Virus record (IMG/VR): IMGVR_UViG_3300023264_000002
Span: 1-52,065 of that record
Reading direction: 5' to 3' (one strand)
DNA from: a virus
Taxonomy: Duplodnaviria > Caudoviricetes
DNA: 52,065 nucleotides
In this document: piece after piece, positions 3,642 through 51,708 of the stretch
Layout: each line of letters opens with the position of its first letter
Position numbering within the stretch: position 1 is the stretch's first letter
Made by a program: the position numbers and the translations under genes
Notes under the pieces: model-generated
Databases searched by the model: none
What the model saw: the letters and a program-made list of their open reading frames with translations, nothing else
Told to the model about the DNA's origin: nothing

Positions 3642-4313
3642 ATGAAAAATGAAGAAAATTCCTCTCCGCGCGTCTATGTCATTGGGGGAGGTTATGACTA
3701 CATTCGTTTCCTCTTTGAACTAGGTTATAAAGGTGCGAAAGGCCTTGGAGACGCTGATTTTCTCCTTTTCACAGGAGGAGAGGACGTTTCTCCAGAACTT
3801 TATGGCGAAAAGCCCCTTCCGCGTACGAATAGTAGCGCTTATCGCGATGAACGTGAAAAGAAAATTTATGAAGAAGCTCTTCGTGCGAAGATTCCTATGG
3901 TTGGAATTTGTCGAGGTGGTCAATTCCTAAATGTGATGAATGGGGGTAAGATGTGGCAGCACGTCAATAACCATTGTGGAAATCACAAGATGACAATTCT
4001 TTTGGAAAAGCCTCCTCGAAGGATTGAAGTTACCTCTACGCATCATCAAATGATGATACCAAACGAGCCTAAGGCTTTGGTTCTTGCTGCTGCTGGTTTG
4101 GCCACCACTAAGATTGCGTTTGGAACAGAGATCGCTGTTGGAAATCCCGCAGATGACTCTGATGCTGAAGTAATTTGGTATGATGAGACGATGTGCCTTT
4201 GCTTCCAGCCCCATCCGGAATTTAAGACGGCTCCTCAGGCTTGTAAGGATTATTTTGAAGAATGCTTGAATGATTTTATCATCCCTTCTCTTGCTGTTAC
4301 AGGAAAGGCATAA
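3642..4313 (+). CDS. Class I glutamine amidotransferase / peptidase C26-like
   Basis: GGEDV, GICRGGQ (nucleophile Cys), HHQ, FQPHPE (His-Glu). Confidence 0.92.
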   Translation: MKNEENSSPRVYVIGGGYDYIRFLFELGYKGAKGLGDADFLLFTGGEDVSPELYGEKPLPRTNSSAYRDEREKKIYEEALRAKIPMVGICRGGQFLNVMNGGKMWQHVNNHCGNHKMTILLEKPPRRIEVTSTHHQMMIPNEPKALVLAAAGLATTKIAFGTEIAVGNPADDSDAEVIWYDETMCLCFQPHPEFKTAPQACKDYFEECLNDFIIPSLAVTGKA

Positions 4314-4317
4314 GTAA

Positions 4318-5496
4318 ATGTGTGGTTTGGTTGGAATGATGGGGGATTTCTTCGGCAAGCATAAGGATATGATGGGCGACCTTCTATATCTTGATACGCT
4401 TCGAGGACAGGATTCGACAGGCGTAGCCGCTCTTCGTCGTGACGGGACATTGGAATGGTATAAGATGACCATTCCGGGATATGAATATATCCAGTTGAAC
4501 GGATATAAAGACCTGTTGAAATTTAATGATCGCGTTTGGCTTGGGCATAATCGATATAAAACAGTCGGTAATGCGACAAGAGCTAATGCCCATCCTTTCG
4601 TAGTCGAAAACGAAAAGGAAAATACGTGGACCATTGTTGGAGCTCACAACGGAACGCTTAAAAATAAGAGTCAGATTGATCCAAAGAATCTGTATGGTAC
4701 TGACTCTGAAGCGTTGATTAATCTTATTTCGGAAGTAGGTCCGAAAGAAGCAATTGCTAAGATTGAAGGTGCGTGGGCGTTGGTTTGGTTCGATGGTGTT
4801 GAGGATCAGCTAAACATTATTCGAAATGAAGAACGCCCTATCACTTTTGCTTTTTCCGAAGATCGAAAAGTTCTTTTTTGGGCTTCAGAGTCGTGGATGC
4901 TTCGTGCCGCTGCCGCGCGACGAGATATAAAACTTTTGGATGGGGCTGTATGGCAGCCTCAACCAGATGAACTATACGTTTTTGATCTACCTGTTAAGAT
5001 AGGTGACCCCATTAAAGATGCGAAAATAACAGGAGGTATCTCGGGTAAAGTCCCCGTTACTCGATTTCCCGTCCAAGACAAAGGGTGGAGCAGCGACAAC
5101 AAACCAGAATTCCTCAAAGGATACTGGACAACCGATAATGGGCAGCGAAAATGGGTCGAATATACGGGGCCTCAGTCGAAAACAACTACGGAAGTTAAAA
5201 CGAAAAGCGAAACAAAGGCATCTTCGGACAATCTAATTGGATTTGAAGGAAAGGAAGTTTCTCGACAGGAAGTCGAAGAACTTAAAAAATGCGGATGTGG
5301 TTGGTGTGACAAACCTGTTGAAGGTGCTAATCCTATTTCATGGTTGAATGAAACAACCGTTCTTTGTTATTCATGTCAGTATGATCGACATTTCTATAAT
5401 GTGCAGGTGCCTGACAACGTAGTTGTAAAACTTACAGATCGCCAGACTAAAGCTCTTCTTACTGTAAAAGAAGCGCGTGAATCTGGAAAGAAGTAA
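4318..5496 (+). CDS. Class II (Ntn) glutamine amidotransferase with Cys-rich C-terminus
   Basis: MCGLVG start, RGQDSTG, GHNRYKT, NAHPF, HNGT, TDSE; CGWC...CYSC at C-terminus. Confidence 0.93.
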   Translation: MCGLVGMMGDFFGKHKDMMGDLLYLDTLRGQDSTGVAALRRDGTLEWYKMTIPGYEYIQLNGYKDLLKFNDRVWLGHNRYKTVGNATRANAHPFVVENEKENTWTIVGAHNGTLKNKSQIDPKNLYGTDSEALINLISEVGPKEAIAKIEGAWALVWFDGVEDQLNIIRNEERPITFAFSEDRKVLFWASESWMLRAAAARRDIKLLDGAVWQPQPDELYVFDLPVKIGDPIKDAKITGGISGKVPVTRFPVQDKGWSSDNKPEFLKGYWTTDNGQRKWVEYTGPQSKTTTEVKTKSETKASSDNLIGFEGKEVSRQEVEELKKCGCGWCDKPVEGANPISWLNETTVLCYSCQYDRHFYNVQVPDNVVVKLTDRQTKALLTVKEARESGKK

Positions 5497-46633: not shown

Positions 46634-48610
46634 TTAAGCCGCAAGAGTTCCGAAGGTTTTCCAACCTGAAGCTGTCATTCCCCAACCAATATTTCCTCCG
46701 GCAGTCGGGACGCTGTTGTAAACTTTACGACCAATTGCCCATGTTCCAAGGGAAGGGGTTGTGGAAGCTTCATCGACACCCGAAGCAGATACAGTCCAGC
46801 CATTATTGAGACCGTCCCAACGGAAAGTCAATGTACGATTAGAACCAGAAAAAGGATATCCTGTTAGACCGGGTGAACCATTAACAAGAGTTGCGTCATC
46901 CGTTGTCTTAACAAGAAGAGTCTTATTATTTGTATTAGCCATGTGAATTGTGAATGTTTCAGGCAAAGTCGGATTCAGCGGAGCATTTGGAATAATAACC
47001 GAACCGTCATTTGTCATTGTCACAATAAGCGTTTTAACGTAGTAAGTAACGTAAAGCGTAGCTTCCATTACCGGATAATTGACCGGATTGTGAACAGCCT
47101 TACTTGCTTCCGCTGTGACAGCGCCATCAAAAGAGACTAGACCAATAGTAACCCTAATTCCTTCAGACGAAGCCGGGACAGGATCGTGAACAGTGTAATA
47201 AGCTCCGTTTTTAACCCATTCACTACCAGCACCATTGAACTCGCTGTATTCGCCCGTACTGGTCGAACTAAAGACAAGCTCACTAGAACCCTGAATCTTT
47301 CCGTAACAACCGTTACCTTCAAAAAGATTACCTCTTCCCTGCGCGCCATACAAGGAAAAGTCCATCAAGCCCGCCGTCGAGTTAGCCAAGAAAATACAGT
47401 TAGCAATCTCCCAAACGTTGTTATCACTTCCTCGGGCAATATTCATACCCGACCCCTTAAAGATCGTGAATTTTGTATTTGCAGGAATCGAGGGAAGGGC
47501 AGGGCTTACAGTCAGAATCTGGCCTGCAACCGCAGTAATCATTGAAGGATCGTAGCCCTCCACCCAAATAATGTCCTTACCTACTTCAATATCGAAAGTA
47601 GAAGGAACAGCGCCAGAAATCGTTACAGAAGTTCCTGAAGCAGAGCAGCGGGCAGGAGTTGAGATGTAGTTAATTCCGTTGAAGAAAGCGGTTCCCGCGT
47701 TGATTACCGTTCCATTTTCTTTAAAAACACAGTTACGAAAAGAAATTGTATTGTTGTTATCACTGGCAGCAAGAGGACGAAGACCGTCTCTTTTCACACC
47801 CCGGACAACTACTCTCTCAAAAAGAGAACCTTTCATCGCAATTGGGCAAATACCGTCTGTGGCGAGAGCGTTTCCGTTAAAAGTAATCCCAGCGACTCGA
47901 AGATTAGCAGCAAGGTATCCGGTAGCACCTCCTTGGAACGTCGCCATTACGGCCATGGGGGCTAGAGCTTTAATTGTCGCTCCTTCTGATCCCTCAATAC
48001 CCGCTGTAAACGTAAGACCTGAAGTGATTCCAAAGGTTCCGGTAAAGTAAAGCTTTATACCAAGACTTGCAGCGGCTTCAATAGCGTCCGTATCGTCTGT
48101 ACTTCCATCCCCTTTGGCTCCGAACATATAAGGAGTAATAAACTGTTCTAGAGAAAGCTTAAAACCTCTCCCGTTCTGGTCAATAAAAGAAGTAAGGGGG
48201 TTATTATCTACGTAATCTTCATCTACATCTTCGTCGTAGAAGTAGAAAGCAGCCCCTTTCCCGCTTTCACTGAAACCAGATGTACGAATATTGTCCGTAC
48301 CCTCGCCGATCTCATAATTTGAAAGGTCATTAAAAAGCCCGACAGAGGTTACATTTCCGCCGGGATCACCTTTTGGTCCTGAAAGACTTTGAGCCTGAGC
48401 AAGGTTTACTGCATCTTTAGCATTAACTGCATCCCCCACGTTCCTAATACGGTTGTGGTTCATGTTAAGCTGCGATAGCATCTCATTAGGAGAAGACCCA
48501 TCCCTTGACAGAGTATTGTCAAAGCCCTCTTCGATCCTATCGAAATTCTGGTTGATCTTTGTTACTGCGTTCAAGTTCGCAGAAATGGGGGGCAAGTTAA
48601 CCTTAGACAA
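46634..48610 (-). CDS. Tailspike / tail fibre with pectate-lyase-like beta-helix
   Basis: NTLSRDG..PN.M...MN..RI.N anchor; FGAKGDGSTDDTDAI; TTG start with AAGGAG. Confidence 0.85.
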   Translation of the reverse strand: MSKVNLPPISANLNAVTKINQNFDRIEEGFDNTLSRDGSSPNEMLSQLNMNHNRIRNVGDAVNAKDAVNLAQAQSLSGPKGDPGGNVTSVGLFNDLSNYEIGEGTDNIRTSGFSESGKGAAFYFYDEDVDEDYVDNNPLTSFIDQNGRGFKLSLEQFITPYMFGAKGDGSTDDTDAIEAAASLGIKLYFTGTFGITSGLTFTAGIEGSEGATIKALAPMAVMATFQGGATGYLAANLRVAGITFNGNALATDGICPIAMKGSLFERVVVRGVKRDGLRPLAASDNNNTISFRNCVFKENGTVINAGTAFFNGINYISTPARCSASGTSVTISGAVPSTFDIEVGKDIIWVEGYDPSMITAVAGQILTVSPALPSIPANTKFTIFKGSGMNIARGSDNNVWEIANCIFLANSTAGLMDFSLYGAQGRGNLFEGNGCYGKIQGSSELVFSSTSTGEYSEFNGAGSEWVKNGAYYTVHDPVPASSEGIRVTIGLVSFDGAVTAEASKAVHNPVNYPVMEATLYVTYYVKTLIVTMTNDGSVIIPNAPLNPTLPETFTIHMANTNNKTLLVKTTDDATLVNGSPGLTGYPFSGSNRTLTFRWDGLNNGWTVSASGVDEASTTPSLGTWAIGRKVYNSVPTAGGNIGWGMTASGWKTFGTLAA

Positions 48611-48640
48611 GTAATAGAACTCCTTCTAACTATTAACGGT

Positions 48641-48669
48641 ATTATAACATGATTACGTACGAATGTCAA
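48641..48669 (-). promoter_or_regulatory. Sigma70-type promoter for the structural arm
   Basis: On the - strand: TTGACA (48669-48664), 17-nt spacer, TATAAT (48646-48641). Confidence 0.9.
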
Positions 48670-48697
48670 GAAAAAAGACCTGCAAATACGATTTTAC

Positions 48698-48726
48698 TTG
48701 ACAAGGTAGGCAAAATACAGTATAAT
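48698..48726 (+). promoter_or_regulatory. Divergent sigma70-type promoter
   Basis: TTGACA (48698-48703), 17-nt spacer, TATAAT (48721-48726). Confidence 0.9.
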
Positions 48727-48732
48727 ACTATT

Positions 48733-48890
48733 AAGAGTCTCGCCGGGGGTAAATGTATATGTATTCTATGTTTGAATGTTAGGGGGTAGGGGCGAGTAAA
48801 TACGAGCCCCGGGGGAACAACTCGTCAACGGTGGGCGAGACAGTTATAGACATTATAAGGCTCCGCCGTGGTTGGTGAGAGCCTTTTCTT
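48733..48890 (+). ncRNA. Candidate small structured RNA
   Basis: Lies between a perfect promoter and a terminator; closing stem GTCTCGCC/GGCGAGAC. Confidence 0.55.
48857..48890 (+). terminator. Intrinsic terminator
   Basis: AAGGCTC.CGCC/GGTG.A.GAGCCTT hairpin followed by TTCTT. Confidence 0.65.
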
Positions 48891-49062
48891 ATATATGGGC
48901 GGGAAATATATTTGTCAACTGTACTTGTCCAAGACGAGCGATAGATTTCAATATTTTCTCCTAGCGAATTTTAAGGGGTAGTATGCATAAACGAAGGCAC
49001 CCCCACACCCCCCGGGCACCCCGTCACGATATATTGTCACAATCTCCTCATCATTTGATATT

Positions 49063-49081
49063 GCTACTCATTCTCATTATC
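49063..49081. promoter_or_regulatory. Fur-box-like site
   Basis: Reverse complement GATAATGAGAATGAGTAGC matches 15/19 of GATAATGATAATCATTATC. Confidence 0.45.
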
Positions 49082-49160
49082 AATTGTGTAAGGTTTGCTT
49101 GACACCTCTGCTATTGAGAGTCAACCTCAACAGGCTGTCCTATCCAGCTAACACACTGAT

Positions 49161-49177
49161 CTGGCACGATTCTTGCT
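49161..49177 (+). promoter_or_regulatory. Sigma54 (-24/-12) promoter consensus
   Basis: CTGGCACG-ATTC-TTGCT with correct GG-N10-GC spacing. Confidence 0.6.
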
Positions 49178-49450
49178 CCTCACGTGCGCGGGTTCCTCCT
49201 CTCTCGCGACAGACCATCTCTTAACCTATGTTAGTATCTTTTTTCTCACCTTCCTTGGAACCATCTAACCCCTCTCTCGTTTTGCTTGCATCGGTTGGTT
49301 GATTGCGTCCGCCCCTCTCTGGCGTTGACCCGCACTCAGGACTAACCACACGGCTAGAAAGTTTCTTTGGAACCTTTCCTTTGACCACTTGTTTAGCCAT
49401 CACATAGTCACACAGGGTAGCACTAGCGGCCCGTCTCGAAAGGGAATAAA

Positions 49451-49690
49451 ATGACACGCCATCAAAGGCGTAAGGCTTCGGCACAGCGTAAGCTTGCTAA
49501 GTCTCACGCTGAGATAGTCCGGCGCAACCTCTCTTCACCCCGTCCTATGGACATCCGGGTGCGCGGTCGCCAGATTAGCCCGGTCTATGATAACAACATG
49601 GACCGTGCGAGGGGTCGGGGAACTACTCCGATCCATCCGTTGGTGGAACGAGTAATCAAGCGCGAGCTTGTGAACTGGAACCCCTACTGA
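49451..49690 (+). CDS. Small basic early protein
   Basis: AAGGGA RBS; Arg-rich 79 aa. Confidence 0.7.
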   Translation: MTRHQRRKASAQRKLAKSHAEIVRRNLSSPRPMDIRVRGRQISPVYDNNMDRARGRGTTPIHPLVERVIKRELVNWNPY

Positions 49691-50286
49691 TTGTTAAAGA
49701 GGGTTGAGGCAGGTATATCCTACGTCTCGCTTTAACCGCCTAGCCAGCGCAAGCGGCTTATAATAGCGGCTCTGTCTGCCGCACTTGGTAGCGCCTTGCC
49801 GGTGCTATTCTCCTACCCCTTACAGGGTCGAGAATAAAGCTGGCGTACGGGTTAGCGGCCCTTGTCCTAACGATAGTAAGGGCAAGAATGGATGCACTCT
49901 AGGGAGTGATGAGGGAGGTAGCAATCTATCATCACGTCTAGCGTCCGCTTCTTTGCGGGTGACTAGTTTACCTGTAGTCCAACCTAGTCACGACAGTGGC
50001 GTCAAAAGGGGGGAGTGTATCTTAGACGAGGGCACCTTGCTGTGCCTACGTCATCCTGTTAAGCTGTAAGGTGAGGCAGGTGAGCGTAGGGTGACACACA
50101 GTTGATTGCATAAGTCCCGGTAGTAAACCCGGCCTTGTCACTGAATTACGCTACTCACTGTAGCGTTGAAGAGTGGTCTAGCTAAGCTGGTTACTTAGTG
50201 AAGCGGACAAATGATTAACCTAAAAGTCTGGCGAATAAATAAACGTCCACTCTTCTACCCTACAGTGACTAACCGGAGTTACTCCG
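49691..50286 (+). ncRNA. Candidate large (~600 nt) structured non-coding RNA
   Basis: No credible ORF; more than 10 local hairpins plus crossing long-range helices (see findings); strand inferred from neighbours. Confidence 0.6.
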
Positions 50287-50472
50287 ATGTATGAATATTT
50301 TCAATTGGCCGACGGTCAATGGGTTGTCACTAATAAAGTGACAGGTAATCTTCAAGAGAAAAAAGTTTTCTCAAACGGGAGATGGAGGTATTCCCTCTGT
50401 GAGTATTCGGATGTCAATGACTTGCTCATGGATTATCCGGGTGCAACTATCTGCAAGGAGATGATGCTATGA
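50287..50472 (+). CDS. Hypothetical early protein
   Basis: GGAG upstream; ORF track. Confidence 0.6.
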   Translation: MYEYFQLADGQWVVTNKVTGNLQEKKVFSNGRWRYSLCEYSDVNDLLMDYPGATICKEMML

Positions 50473-50575
50473 GTCTCCGTAATCGCCTCAATGACATGGG
50501 GATTGATGGACTCATGTGCGAAGAGCTTATCCGTGAGTACCTCGAACTCACTCGCATCGATCCATCCGTGGAGAT

Positions 50576-50767
50576 GTGGGCCTTTCTTCAAACAGTGAAG
50601 GACAGCATAAAATGATAATCGGTGCTCTCATCGGTGTCGTGTTCGTAACACTCATAAACAGCTATAAAGAGCATGTGGTGAACAACGTTATCTCTTTCAA
50701 ACATTTTGTCATTGACTGGGTCTTCTTCGGATCAGCAGGGGCATTGTTTGGATTTGTCCTTACTTAA
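50576..50767 (+). CDS. Small two-TM membrane protein (start probably at MIIGAL)
   Basis: Two hydrophobic segments. Confidence 0.55.
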   Translation: MGLSSNSEGQHKMIIGALIGVVFVTLINSYKEHVVNNVISFKHFVIDWVFFGSAGALFGFVLT

Positions 50768-51174: not shown

Positions 51175-51708
51175 ATGGAACTTAAGGCAATTAACAGGAA
51201 TATCGGTCTCGTCGCGAAGGCGGGAACGAAGTTCAATGAACTGGTGCAGACGACTGCCGTCGGCATTCTCGTTCATGCGCAGGCGACCGGCGATTGCACG
51301 GCTGCTCTGCGTCTCGTTCAGGCGATGCCGAAGTCGGCTCGTCGTGGACTTCTCATCAATTTCTTCGCGGCCTATTCGCCCATCGGCATGAACGTCGGCA
51401 CTGGCAAGGTGGCCTTTCACAAGCCGACGGCGAAGAGCTACAAACCCTTTGACATCGAGGGCGCGACCAACAATCCGTGGTACAACTCGGCAGAAGCGAA
51501 CAATGAGGACCTTCCGGATACCACGCTGGAACAGACCAACAAGATGATCTTCGGCCTCGCTTCGCGTCTTCAGAAGCAGCTCGACGAGGGTCATGTTGCG
51601 GCCAATGACCGTGAGACGGTGGCCGAACAGGTCGCTCAGCTCAAGGCGCTCGGGCGCACGGTTGCCAAGGTCGCTGCCCCGGCGGGGCCTGTCGCTATCG
51701 CCGCCTAA
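51175..51708 (+). CDS. Hypothetical early protein with GC-rich codon usage
   Basis: GGAG RBS; 177 aa; strong third-position C/G bias. Confidence 0.85.
   Translation: MELKAINRNIGLVAKAGTKFNELVQTTAVGILVHAQATGDCTAALRLVQAMPKSARRGLLINFFAAYSPIGMNVGTGKVAFHKPTAKSYKPFDIEGATNNPWYNSAEANNEDLPDTTLEQTNKMIFGLASRLQKQLDEGHVAANDRETVAEQVAQLKALGRTVAKVAAPAGPVAIAA

Follow-up and report, generated by a model that had tools for sequence, protein, structure and literature searches.

To our knowledge, only a handful of structured RNAs larger than 400 nt and without an assigned function have been described in bacteria and phages, namely OLE, GOLLD, ROOL, raiA and HEARO. All five have led to new biology, and recent work showed that GOLLD and ROOL form cages made solely of RNA. 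Bacterial Y RNAs of the YrlA type, in which the two ends form a long stem capped by a tRNA-like module, are bound by Ro/Rsr. As set out in a preprint (bioRxiv 10.1101/2024.12.08.627333), GOLLD and ROOL are phage or prophage RNAs of ~500-800 nt, rich in helices and with strongly conserved loops, and often lie near tRNA islands; conserved kissing loops matter for their architecture, and both contain a linker of low conservation, where GOLLD in some cases carries a tRNA. Here, a 596 nt stretch (49691-50286) of a phage genome is reported that very probably encodes a conserved plus-strand RNA structure of a new family. The window analysed is the complete 52,065-bp IMG/VR virus record, and its own locus is referred to as W.

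The portal protein encoded in the window is ~51% identical to SIO1-, Lentibacter- and ICP2-type podovirus portals, and the source phage is an uncultured SIO1/ICP2-like podovirus with probably Gram-negative hosts. Genes are on the plus strand from position 1 to ~23,000, on the minus strand from ~23,000 to 48,610, and on the plus strand again from 49,451. The genome had been described as tightly packed around the gap; the gap itself is indeed gene-free, but its flank is not tightly packed, as almost no genes lie in 48611-49450 either, a stretch with two divergent sigma70 promoters (Table 1). From the position of the rightward promoter and of the first plus-strand gene, the structured gap lies ~960 nt into the rightward early transcript, directly 3′ of the first early ORF and followed by a run of small ORFs, which places it in an early sigma70-driven transcription unit (promoter 48698..48726) and bears out its previous assignment to the early region. 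No plus-strand terminator was predicted in 48,500-50,500, and no promoter or terminator of its own was found bounding the structured RNA, indicating that it is transcribed as a segment of the early mRNA. A search of RNA data sets for the stretch listed no holder, and one DNA run, from a leaf litter metagenome that is the probable source sample, contains it.

In order to identify relatives, the locus and its neighbouring proteins were used as queries. Neither blastn with 48600-50700 nor tblastn with the 79-aa product of the first early gene matched any of 50,697 phage records, and this protein has no Pfam, PHROG or Atlas match. Eight homologues (P0001-P0008, 47-81% identity) were present in a large protein collection (ENA, Logan, JGI), all sharing the MTRHQRRK N-terminus and most of them the DRARGRG motif. 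Scans of IMG/VR, JGI metagenomes and GTDB genomes with protein alignments A2 and A3 recovered only L002 and the nearly identical L003 (IMG/VR), L004 and L005 (metagenomes), and L012, a 50-kb contig binned with a Cellvibrionaceae metagenome-assembled genome, from which the hosts appear to be Gram-negative. In all five lineages (W, L002=L003, L004, L005 and L012) a gene-free gap (596 nt in W; 534, 508, 669 and 431 nt in the other four, a range of 431-669 nt) directly follows a conserved Arg-rich first early ORF of 72-86 aa. A further scan (A4) gave 17 distant phiKMV-like loci (L013-L029), all of which are without the small Arg-rich protein. The 177-aa neighbour protein as a lone query had no homologues in IMG/VR, and a 177-aa ORF in L002 was found not to be a homologue of the one in W. 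The 6 and 24 loci obtained in two DNA-pattern scans of IMG/VR were matches by chance, none of them related by blastn or tblastn. Short identical words are shared between the gaps: a 16-mer between W and L004 and a 14-mer between W and L005 (0/100 shuffles each), a 12-mer between W and L002 (1/100 shuffles), and GUAAGGUG, from the invariant loop of hairpin H7, in four of the five lineages (W, L004, L002 and L012; 0/500 shuffles).

The absence of a credible gene from the ~600 nt stretch, claimed in the first-pass annotation, was borne out. The sole sizeable plus-strand ORF (49785..50069, 94 aa) has a TTG start, and tblastx among the five syntenic gaps revealed no conserved reading frame, only tiny matches in mixed frames and on both strands, the best of which (E 3.6e-4, 26 codons) lies in minus frames around an invariant nucleotide island. 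The longest stop-free stretches of the lineages likewise fall on differing strands and in differing frames. An unannotated protein gene, to which the open plus-strand frame of 94-100 codons would correspond, is therefore close to refuted, given that no frame is kept between lineages. A small ORF following the Shine-Dalgarno-like H7 loop was also considered and rejected; read by eye, it has 4 codons in W and 22 in L004 and is not conserved.

The stretch is predicted to fold well beyond chance. The minimum free energy (MFE) of W is -227.5 kcal/mol compared to -195.8 ± 7.0 kcal/mol for 100 dinucleotide shuffles (z -4.52), none of which was as good, in agreement with its earlier description as highly structured. 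In the MFE structure 63% of bases are paired, and W contains three perfect stems of at least 9 bp where 0.58 are expected, a number reached by 3/200 shuffles. The gaps of all five lineages beat their shuffles on the plus strand, with z values on the plus and minus strand of -4.52 and -3.78 for W, -3.13 and -0.97 for L004, -3.1 and -1.96 for L002, -3.56 and -2.82 for L005, and -2.44 and -1.36 for L012. The minus strand of W thus also folds well, and the plus-strand z is the lower of the two in 5/5 lineages.

Comparison with Rfam 15 by cmscan gave no match at the gathering score across the whole window, and none at E<=10 in 48600-50400, consistent with the first-pass reading that known families are absent from the stretch. 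At E<=1, no family matched in the loci L001, L002, L004 and L005, except for a tRNA-like cap in L004 and a weak match in L002, both of which are described below. Covariance models of ROOL and GOLLD, both of which we take to be included in Rfam, gave no match in the gathering-score, E<=1 or E<=10 scans, nor did those of group I and II introns, RNase P, riboswitches and small ribozymes. There was no Rfam tmRNA match and ARAGORN called no tmRNA gene in L001-L005, while neither Rfam nor ARAGORN matched a tRNA in the window region. A CRISPR-repeat-like match on the minus strand of L002 (25.3 bits, E 0.31) was regarded as noise. The described families compared here are those of Rfam 15; according to a 2023 article (PMC10690425), 8,495 candidate structured RNAs were predicted from IMG/VR, and that catalogue might list a fragment of the W RNA.

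The RNA family is tiny: W and L004 are the only pair that can be aligned over most of the length, and in the stalk only L005 can be added. The identical islands common to W and L004 are short and collinear, with diverged sequence between them. When the two were aligned naively by sequence from anchors, the helix strands fell out of register (SCI 0.40), and covariance-model alignments (Infernal, models built from W alone) were therefore used. Model R1 matched L004 590-688 (38.9 bits, E 1.8e-8) and model R2 matched L004 792-881 (33.3 bits, E 4.5e-5); across 52 sources (475 kb), neither had a credible match other than L004. In the R1 alignment (A11, 49785-49890), 93.2% of cells in 24 pairs are paired (30-48% when slid) and nine pairs are changed on both sides; the shuffle control gave 2/500. 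In the R2 alignment (A12, 50035-50136), the corresponding values are 97.3% of cells in 19 pairs (24-42% when slid) and seven pairs changed on both sides, with 4/500 in the shuffle control. Both are two-sequence alignments (W and L004) fitted to the structure of W, which favours that structure. The terminal stalk has its strands in register in a plain MAFFT alignment of three sequences, W, L004 and L005 (A10), where 50/51 cells of 17 pairs are paired and six pairs are changed on both sides. Shuffle controls for A10 reached the observed value in 0/500 cases for cells paired, cells changed on both sides and covariation score, in 1/500 for pairs changed on both sides, and in 9/500 for further pair types. 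In total, 22 pairs are changed on both sides in the three tool-counted alignments, and a further seven were counted by script (two in H2, two in H4 and three in H5); these compensatory changes among W and its alignable relatives support the structure. In the 5′ domain (domain A), unpaired columns are 73% identical compared to 49% for paired columns.

The same models were applied to the more distant lineages. R1, R2 and R3 on L002 and L012, and R1 and R2 on L005, gave nothing significant, the best distant-lineage score being 12.9 bits (E 0.11) at L002 4673-4755. All 17 phiKMV-like loci searched were without a match to R1 or R2, and L013, L014, L015 and L017 had none to R3 with filters off. Homology of the more distant lineages is suggested by synteny and shared words. 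On reading of the folds, W and L002 share a hairpin with the loop AACCUAAA, the stems of which differ by two compensatory pairs. Its position relative to GUAAGGUG differs between W and L002, indicating that domain order may differ between lineages.

The strand on which the structure acts is informative with regard to a DNA-level element, such as a replication origin, packaging signal or promoter cluster in which the inverted repeats would act in DNA. The stretch adjoins a divergent promoter region, contains one promoter-like AATCTATCAT copy and, as noted, folds well on the minus strand too. The tool-counted helices contain seven G-U cells but not one A-C cell, as would be expected of a plus-strand RNA, and the terminal-stalk model scores 98-121 bits on the plus strand and 31-42 bits on the minus strand. 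Together with the better plus-strand folding in 5/5 lineages, these observations argue against a DNA-level element, which we consider very unlikely, and for an RNA structure.

Twelve helices had been listed in the first-pass annotation, and recomputation of their arm positions placed all of them where they had been located. Three are supported by compensatory changes: TATTCTC/GAGAATA (H3, alignment A11), the CCTACG...GCGTAGG hairpin (H7, alignment A12) and GAAGAGTGG/CCACTCTTC (50168-76/50247-55, the terminal stalk of A10). One, GCCCTTG/TAAGGGC, is partly supported, over its inner five pairs, two of which are changed on both sides. Three others are not supported and are contradicted by L004, the nearest relative: GGCAC/GTGCC shares bases with the covarying CTGTG/CACAG and does not occur in L004, GTCACTG/CAGTGAC likewise conflicts with a covarying arm (CUACAG) and is left unpartnered in L004, and GGTTAG lacks a CTAACC partner there. 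The other five are ambiguous or lie in segments that are variable or missing from L004; GTGATGA/TCATCAC, GTGACTAG/CTAGTCAC, CTAAG/CTTAG and GTCCGCTTC/GAAGCGGAC are in such segments, and ACGCTAC/GTAGCGT competes with the covarying stalk extension. The long-range pseudoknot that had been proposed depends on the 9-bp pair GTCCGCTTC/GAAGCGGAC, both arms of which are in segments that L004 lacks, and is not supported.

Table 1 Features of the early region and of the structured RNA in the window, 5′ to 3′
Feature	Position	Strand	Remarks
Back-to-back pair of perfect (12/12) sigma70 promoters	48641-48726	divergent	
Perfect sigma70-type promoter (12/12)	48698..48726	+	expected start of the early transcript that includes small ORF and RNA
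First early gene, 79-aa Arg-rich protein	49451..49690	+	N-terminus MTRHQRRK, later DRARGRG
Structured RNA, whole	49691..50270	+	begins at conserved GUUAAAGA, immediately past the stop of the first ORF; ends with the terminal stalk's 3′ arm
Hairpin H2, GCGGC/GCCGC	49766..49782	+	aligned with L004 GCCCC/GGGGC; 2 pairs changed on both sides
Second conserved block GGUAGCGCC	49787-49795	+	
Three-tier hairpin H3 (GCCGGT/GCTGGC, TATTCTC/GAGAATA, ACCC/GGGT)	49798..49844	+	17 pairs, 9 changed on both sides
Invariant H3 apical loop CUUACA	49819-49824	+	
Conserved single-stranded block UACGGGUUAGCGGCC	49846..49860	+	words shared with L004
Hairpin H4, GCCCTTG/TAAGGGC	49858..49883	+	inner 5 bp compared to L004: 2 pairs changed on both sides
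Central domain, closed by long-range helix H5	49891..50021	+	H5 arms 49891-49899 with 50013-50021
Hairpin C	49906-49935		within central domain
AATCTATCAT copy, promoter-like motif	49923-49932		within central domain
Hairpin GTGACTAG/CTAGTCAC			within central domain
Long hairpin H7 (CTGTG/CACAG, CCTACG/CGTAGG, CCTG/CAGG)	50040..50101	+	15 pairs, 6 changed on both sides
Hairpin H8, CCGG/CCGG, loop UAGUAAAC	50117..50132	+	1 pair changed on both sides in L004 (G-C to A-U)
Terminal domain, stalk and variable three-hairpin cap	50158..50265	+	A10 pair counts and fold z in text
Stalk arms	50158-50176 with 50247-50265		CUGUAG.GU.GAAGAGUGG with CCACUCUUC.AC.CUACAG
Three-hairpin, cloverleaf-like stalk cap	50177-50246		variable between lineages
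Small hairpin CGGAG-UUA-CUCCG	50274..50286	+	includes GGAG before the ATG (50287) of the next ORF

In H3, 94% of cells are paired between W and L004. The inner CCUUG/UAAGG of H4 corresponds to CCUAC-GAAA-GUAGG in L004, although four of seven H4 pairs are gapped in the model-based alignment. H5 has nine pairs compared to L004, of which three are changed on both sides and three on one side, and the interior of the central domain that it closes is variable, with ~48 nt missing from L004. The H7 loop is 18 nt long, and sixteen of its bases (50061-50076, AAGCUGUAAGGUGAGG) are identical in L004. For the overall arrangement, the unconstrained fold of L004 (-194.6 kcal/mol) hardly differs from the one obtained when the supported helices are imposed (-192.5 kcal/mol): a helix P1 closes a junction comprising a first small hairpin (32-51 of the gap), H1, H2, the H3 domain, H4 and the H5 domain, followed by H7, H8 and finally the stalk with its cap. 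Forcing this plan on W costs 21.7 kcal/mol relative to its MFE, and P1 contains a single mismatch in W and lacks pairs changed on both sides, which makes the junction as a whole tentative.

A long stalk with a three-hairpin cap makes up the folded terminal domain in W, L004 and L005, with fold z values of -3.85, -2.59 and -4.96, respectively. The L004 cap (918-985) matches the Rfam tRNA model with 45.9 bits (gathering score 29), including acceptor, D and T arms; it has only 10 nt where the model has 15 (the anticodon arm), its acceptor stem runs on into the long stalk, and ARAGORN does not report it. For the W and L005 caps there is no Rfam tRNA match, in the W region even at E<=10, and ARAGORN found no genes in L001-L005. 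The tRNA-like score of the L004 element, the cloverleaf shape of the W and L005 caps and, by reading, the resemblance of the CUUACA loop to an anticodon loop would be consistent with a decayed tRNA island in which hairpins persist without a collective function. This is most improbable, given that no full or partial tRNA is matched in the window region (E<=10) or called by ARAGORN in the five loci, and that decaying genes would not be expected to preserve 22 pairs by two-sided changes or to leave a loop of 16 nt invariant.

Two of the conserved loops are complementary to each other. The H3 loop (within CCUUACAG) can pair with CUGUAAGG in the H7 loop over 8/8 positions in W and 7/8 in L004, and CUUACA/UGUAAG is the only loop-loop 6-mer complementarity in the RNA of either lineage. 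Shuffling of the loops yields a 6-mer complementarity in 24% (W) and 7% (L004) of cases; this is not rare by chance, and the CUUACA/UGUAAG contact is accordingly put forward as hypothetical.

As the structured RNA lacks its own promoter and terminator and forms part of the operon in 5/5 lineages, a cis-acting role in the early mRNA is a live rival. Such an intercistronic leader could shield the untranslated stretch from Rho and RNases, provide an RNase III-type processing stalk between genes 1 and 2, and set translation of the small genes that follow. A hairpin in W covers the GGAG before the next ATG, and the stalk is a helix of ~20 bp with conserved mismatches and a helix geometry like that of known RNase III sites, such as those of T7 early mRNA. 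The first early gene also encodes a small Arg-rich protein, which might act on the RNA in the manner of a lambda-N-type antiterminator. However, the hairpin over the ribosome-binding site is not seen in L004, and no terminators that an antiterminator could read through were found in 48500-50500. The RNA is also out of proportion to known nut, put and RNase III elements, which are far smaller: it measures 430-670 nt and has invariant apical loops and several domains that covary independently. We consider a cis-acting leader rather unlikely, if still to be reckoned with; if the RNA is only that, it is an unusually elaborate one.

The best explanation overall, and one that we regard as reasonably probable, is a conserved multi-domain folded RNA module of no described family within the early transcript. 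Such an RNA would work as a folded module rather than as a spacer, and its invariant loops may be recognition surfaces, with the CUUACA loop potentially contacting UGUAAG in the loop of H7, either intramolecularly or between two copies of the RNA. The scaffold, decoy or ribozyme roles proposed in the first-pass annotation would be candidate functions. The most likely protein partner would be the Arg-rich product of the gene that immediately precedes the RNA in all lineages, and the long imperfect stalk is a plausible processing site at which the RNA or its cap could be freed from the mRNA. That the module is a discrete RNA or RNP acting in trans is plausible, although we stop short of calling it probable. 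A more elaborate and considerably more speculative scenario is a new class of ornate phage RNA, produced within minutes of infection, that like ROOL and GOLLD assembles a higher-order particle, through intermolecular CUUACA/UGUAAG pairing, carries a tRNA-like or cloverleaf cargo on its conserved stalk and, as an RNP with the co-inherited Arg-rich protein, captures a host machine during takeover, for which the ribosome, RNase P or III, or a tRNA-directed defence nuclease would be candidate targets; we give this a low probability. The compensatory-pair evidence (22 + 7) is sufficient to justify synthesis, probing and structural work.

Compared to known systems, the W RNA shows partial likenesses to several. 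The W cap has no match to tRNA, and the L004 cap matches the tRNA model with a shortened anticodon arm. The 3′ domain has the topology of Y RNAs of the YrlA type, a long stem with a tRNA-like cap, but the stalk makes up just the final fifth of a far larger RNA, and there is no Rfam match; a Y RNA/Ro system was considered and rejected, as no TROVE (PF05731) protein was found in the phage, whereas positive controls were found in two control genomes. As in lambda N/nut, a small Arg-rich first early protein, with a conserved ARM-like N-terminus, adjoins a structured RNA in the same transcript, and W contains a CUUUAAC string followed by a GCAA-capped hairpin, which we take to resemble boxA/boxB. 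Unlike lambda nut, the GNRA hairpin is present in W only (the L004 loop is 9 nt) and the RNA is approximately ten times larger, and unlike lambda N, the 79-aa protein has no Pfam or PHROG similarity and no terminators are predicted nearby. The W RNA is similar in kind to GOLLD and ROOL, although the model of neither matches it: like them it is large, with a cap that varies between lineages and an invariant complementary loop pair, and the variable cap, tRNA-like in one of three alignable lineages (L004), may be compared by analogy only with the tRNA-holding linker of GOLLD. Unlike GOLLD and ROOL, the W RNA matches no Rfam model, its hosts appear to be Gram-negative, and it lies inside an early operon after a small Arg-rich gene rather than in a tRNA island. 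This different setting, an immediate-early operon in which the RNA is always paired with a small Arg-rich protein, makes it a candidate early-acting phage RNP.

DNA conservation between lineages amounts to 69-73% in the leader that lies immediately 5′ of the small Arg-rich ORF, the first early gene, and the ORF and its leader are about equally conserved at this level. The leader possibly serves as a regulatory 5′ UTR, or else is an additional part of the candidate large structured RNA in the downstream gap. A stretch of ~900 nt (L002 ~3800-4760) that runs from the leader through the small ORF and across the entire structured gap is identical in the IMG/VR phages L002 and L003, the flanks of which differ, indicating either strong constraint on, or recent exchange of, the leader/ORF/gap module.

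The RNAs of the window and L002 share a small hairpin: its 8-nt loop, AACCUAAA, is identical in the two, and its stems are distinguished by two compensatory pairs. The place of this hairpin relative to the GUAAGGUG motif differs between the two RNAs, which suggests a domain rearrangement between them. In the metagenomic relative L004, the ~20-bp stalk extends the acceptor stem of a tRNA-like element that scores 45.9 bits to the tRNA model, has only 10 nt in place of the model's anticodon arm (15 nt), lacks an encoded CCA and was not called by ARAGORN.

The motif AATCTATCAT occurs 17 times in the window (≤1 mismatch) versus 5.2 copies expected, and all copies are oriented with the local genes; many are intergenic or immediately 5′ of a start codon, and others are within long ORFs. 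One copy is held by hairpin C of the RNA's central domain in the window and is absent there in L004. AATCTATCAT resembles a -10-like promoter element specific to the phage, or some other signal in transcripts. Of the predicted back-to-back sigma70 promoters, both perfect (12/12), the leftward one is directed to the structural operon and the rightward one to the early operon.

Locations of features in the window and its relatives
Feature	Window	Strand	Relatives
Small-ORF leader	49246-49476		L004 47-114; L005 1457-1683
AACCUAAA-loop hairpin	50213-50228		L002 4599-4614
tRNA-like element			L004 918-985
AATCTATCAT, examples (≤1 mismatch)	488, 1873, 5495, 13765, 17543, 49923, 50771, 51909	+	
AATCTATCAT, examples (≤1 mismatch)	25039, 33048	-	
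AATCTATCAT in relatives			L002 6331, 6890; L004 1420, 2040; L005 1428, 2981
Predicted sigma70 promoter pair	48641-48726		
177-aa early protein (phrog_1448)	51175-51708		
Long ORF-free stretches		+	L013 1778-3218; L014 2079-2799

The 177-aa early protein has relatives (28-34%) in phiKMV-like Pseudomonas, Acinetobacter and Caulobacter phages, encoded at a distance of ~1.5-2 kb from the genome's left end. In two distant IMG/VR relatives, long stretches that are ORF-free on the + strand lie upstream and might harbour other structured RNAs.
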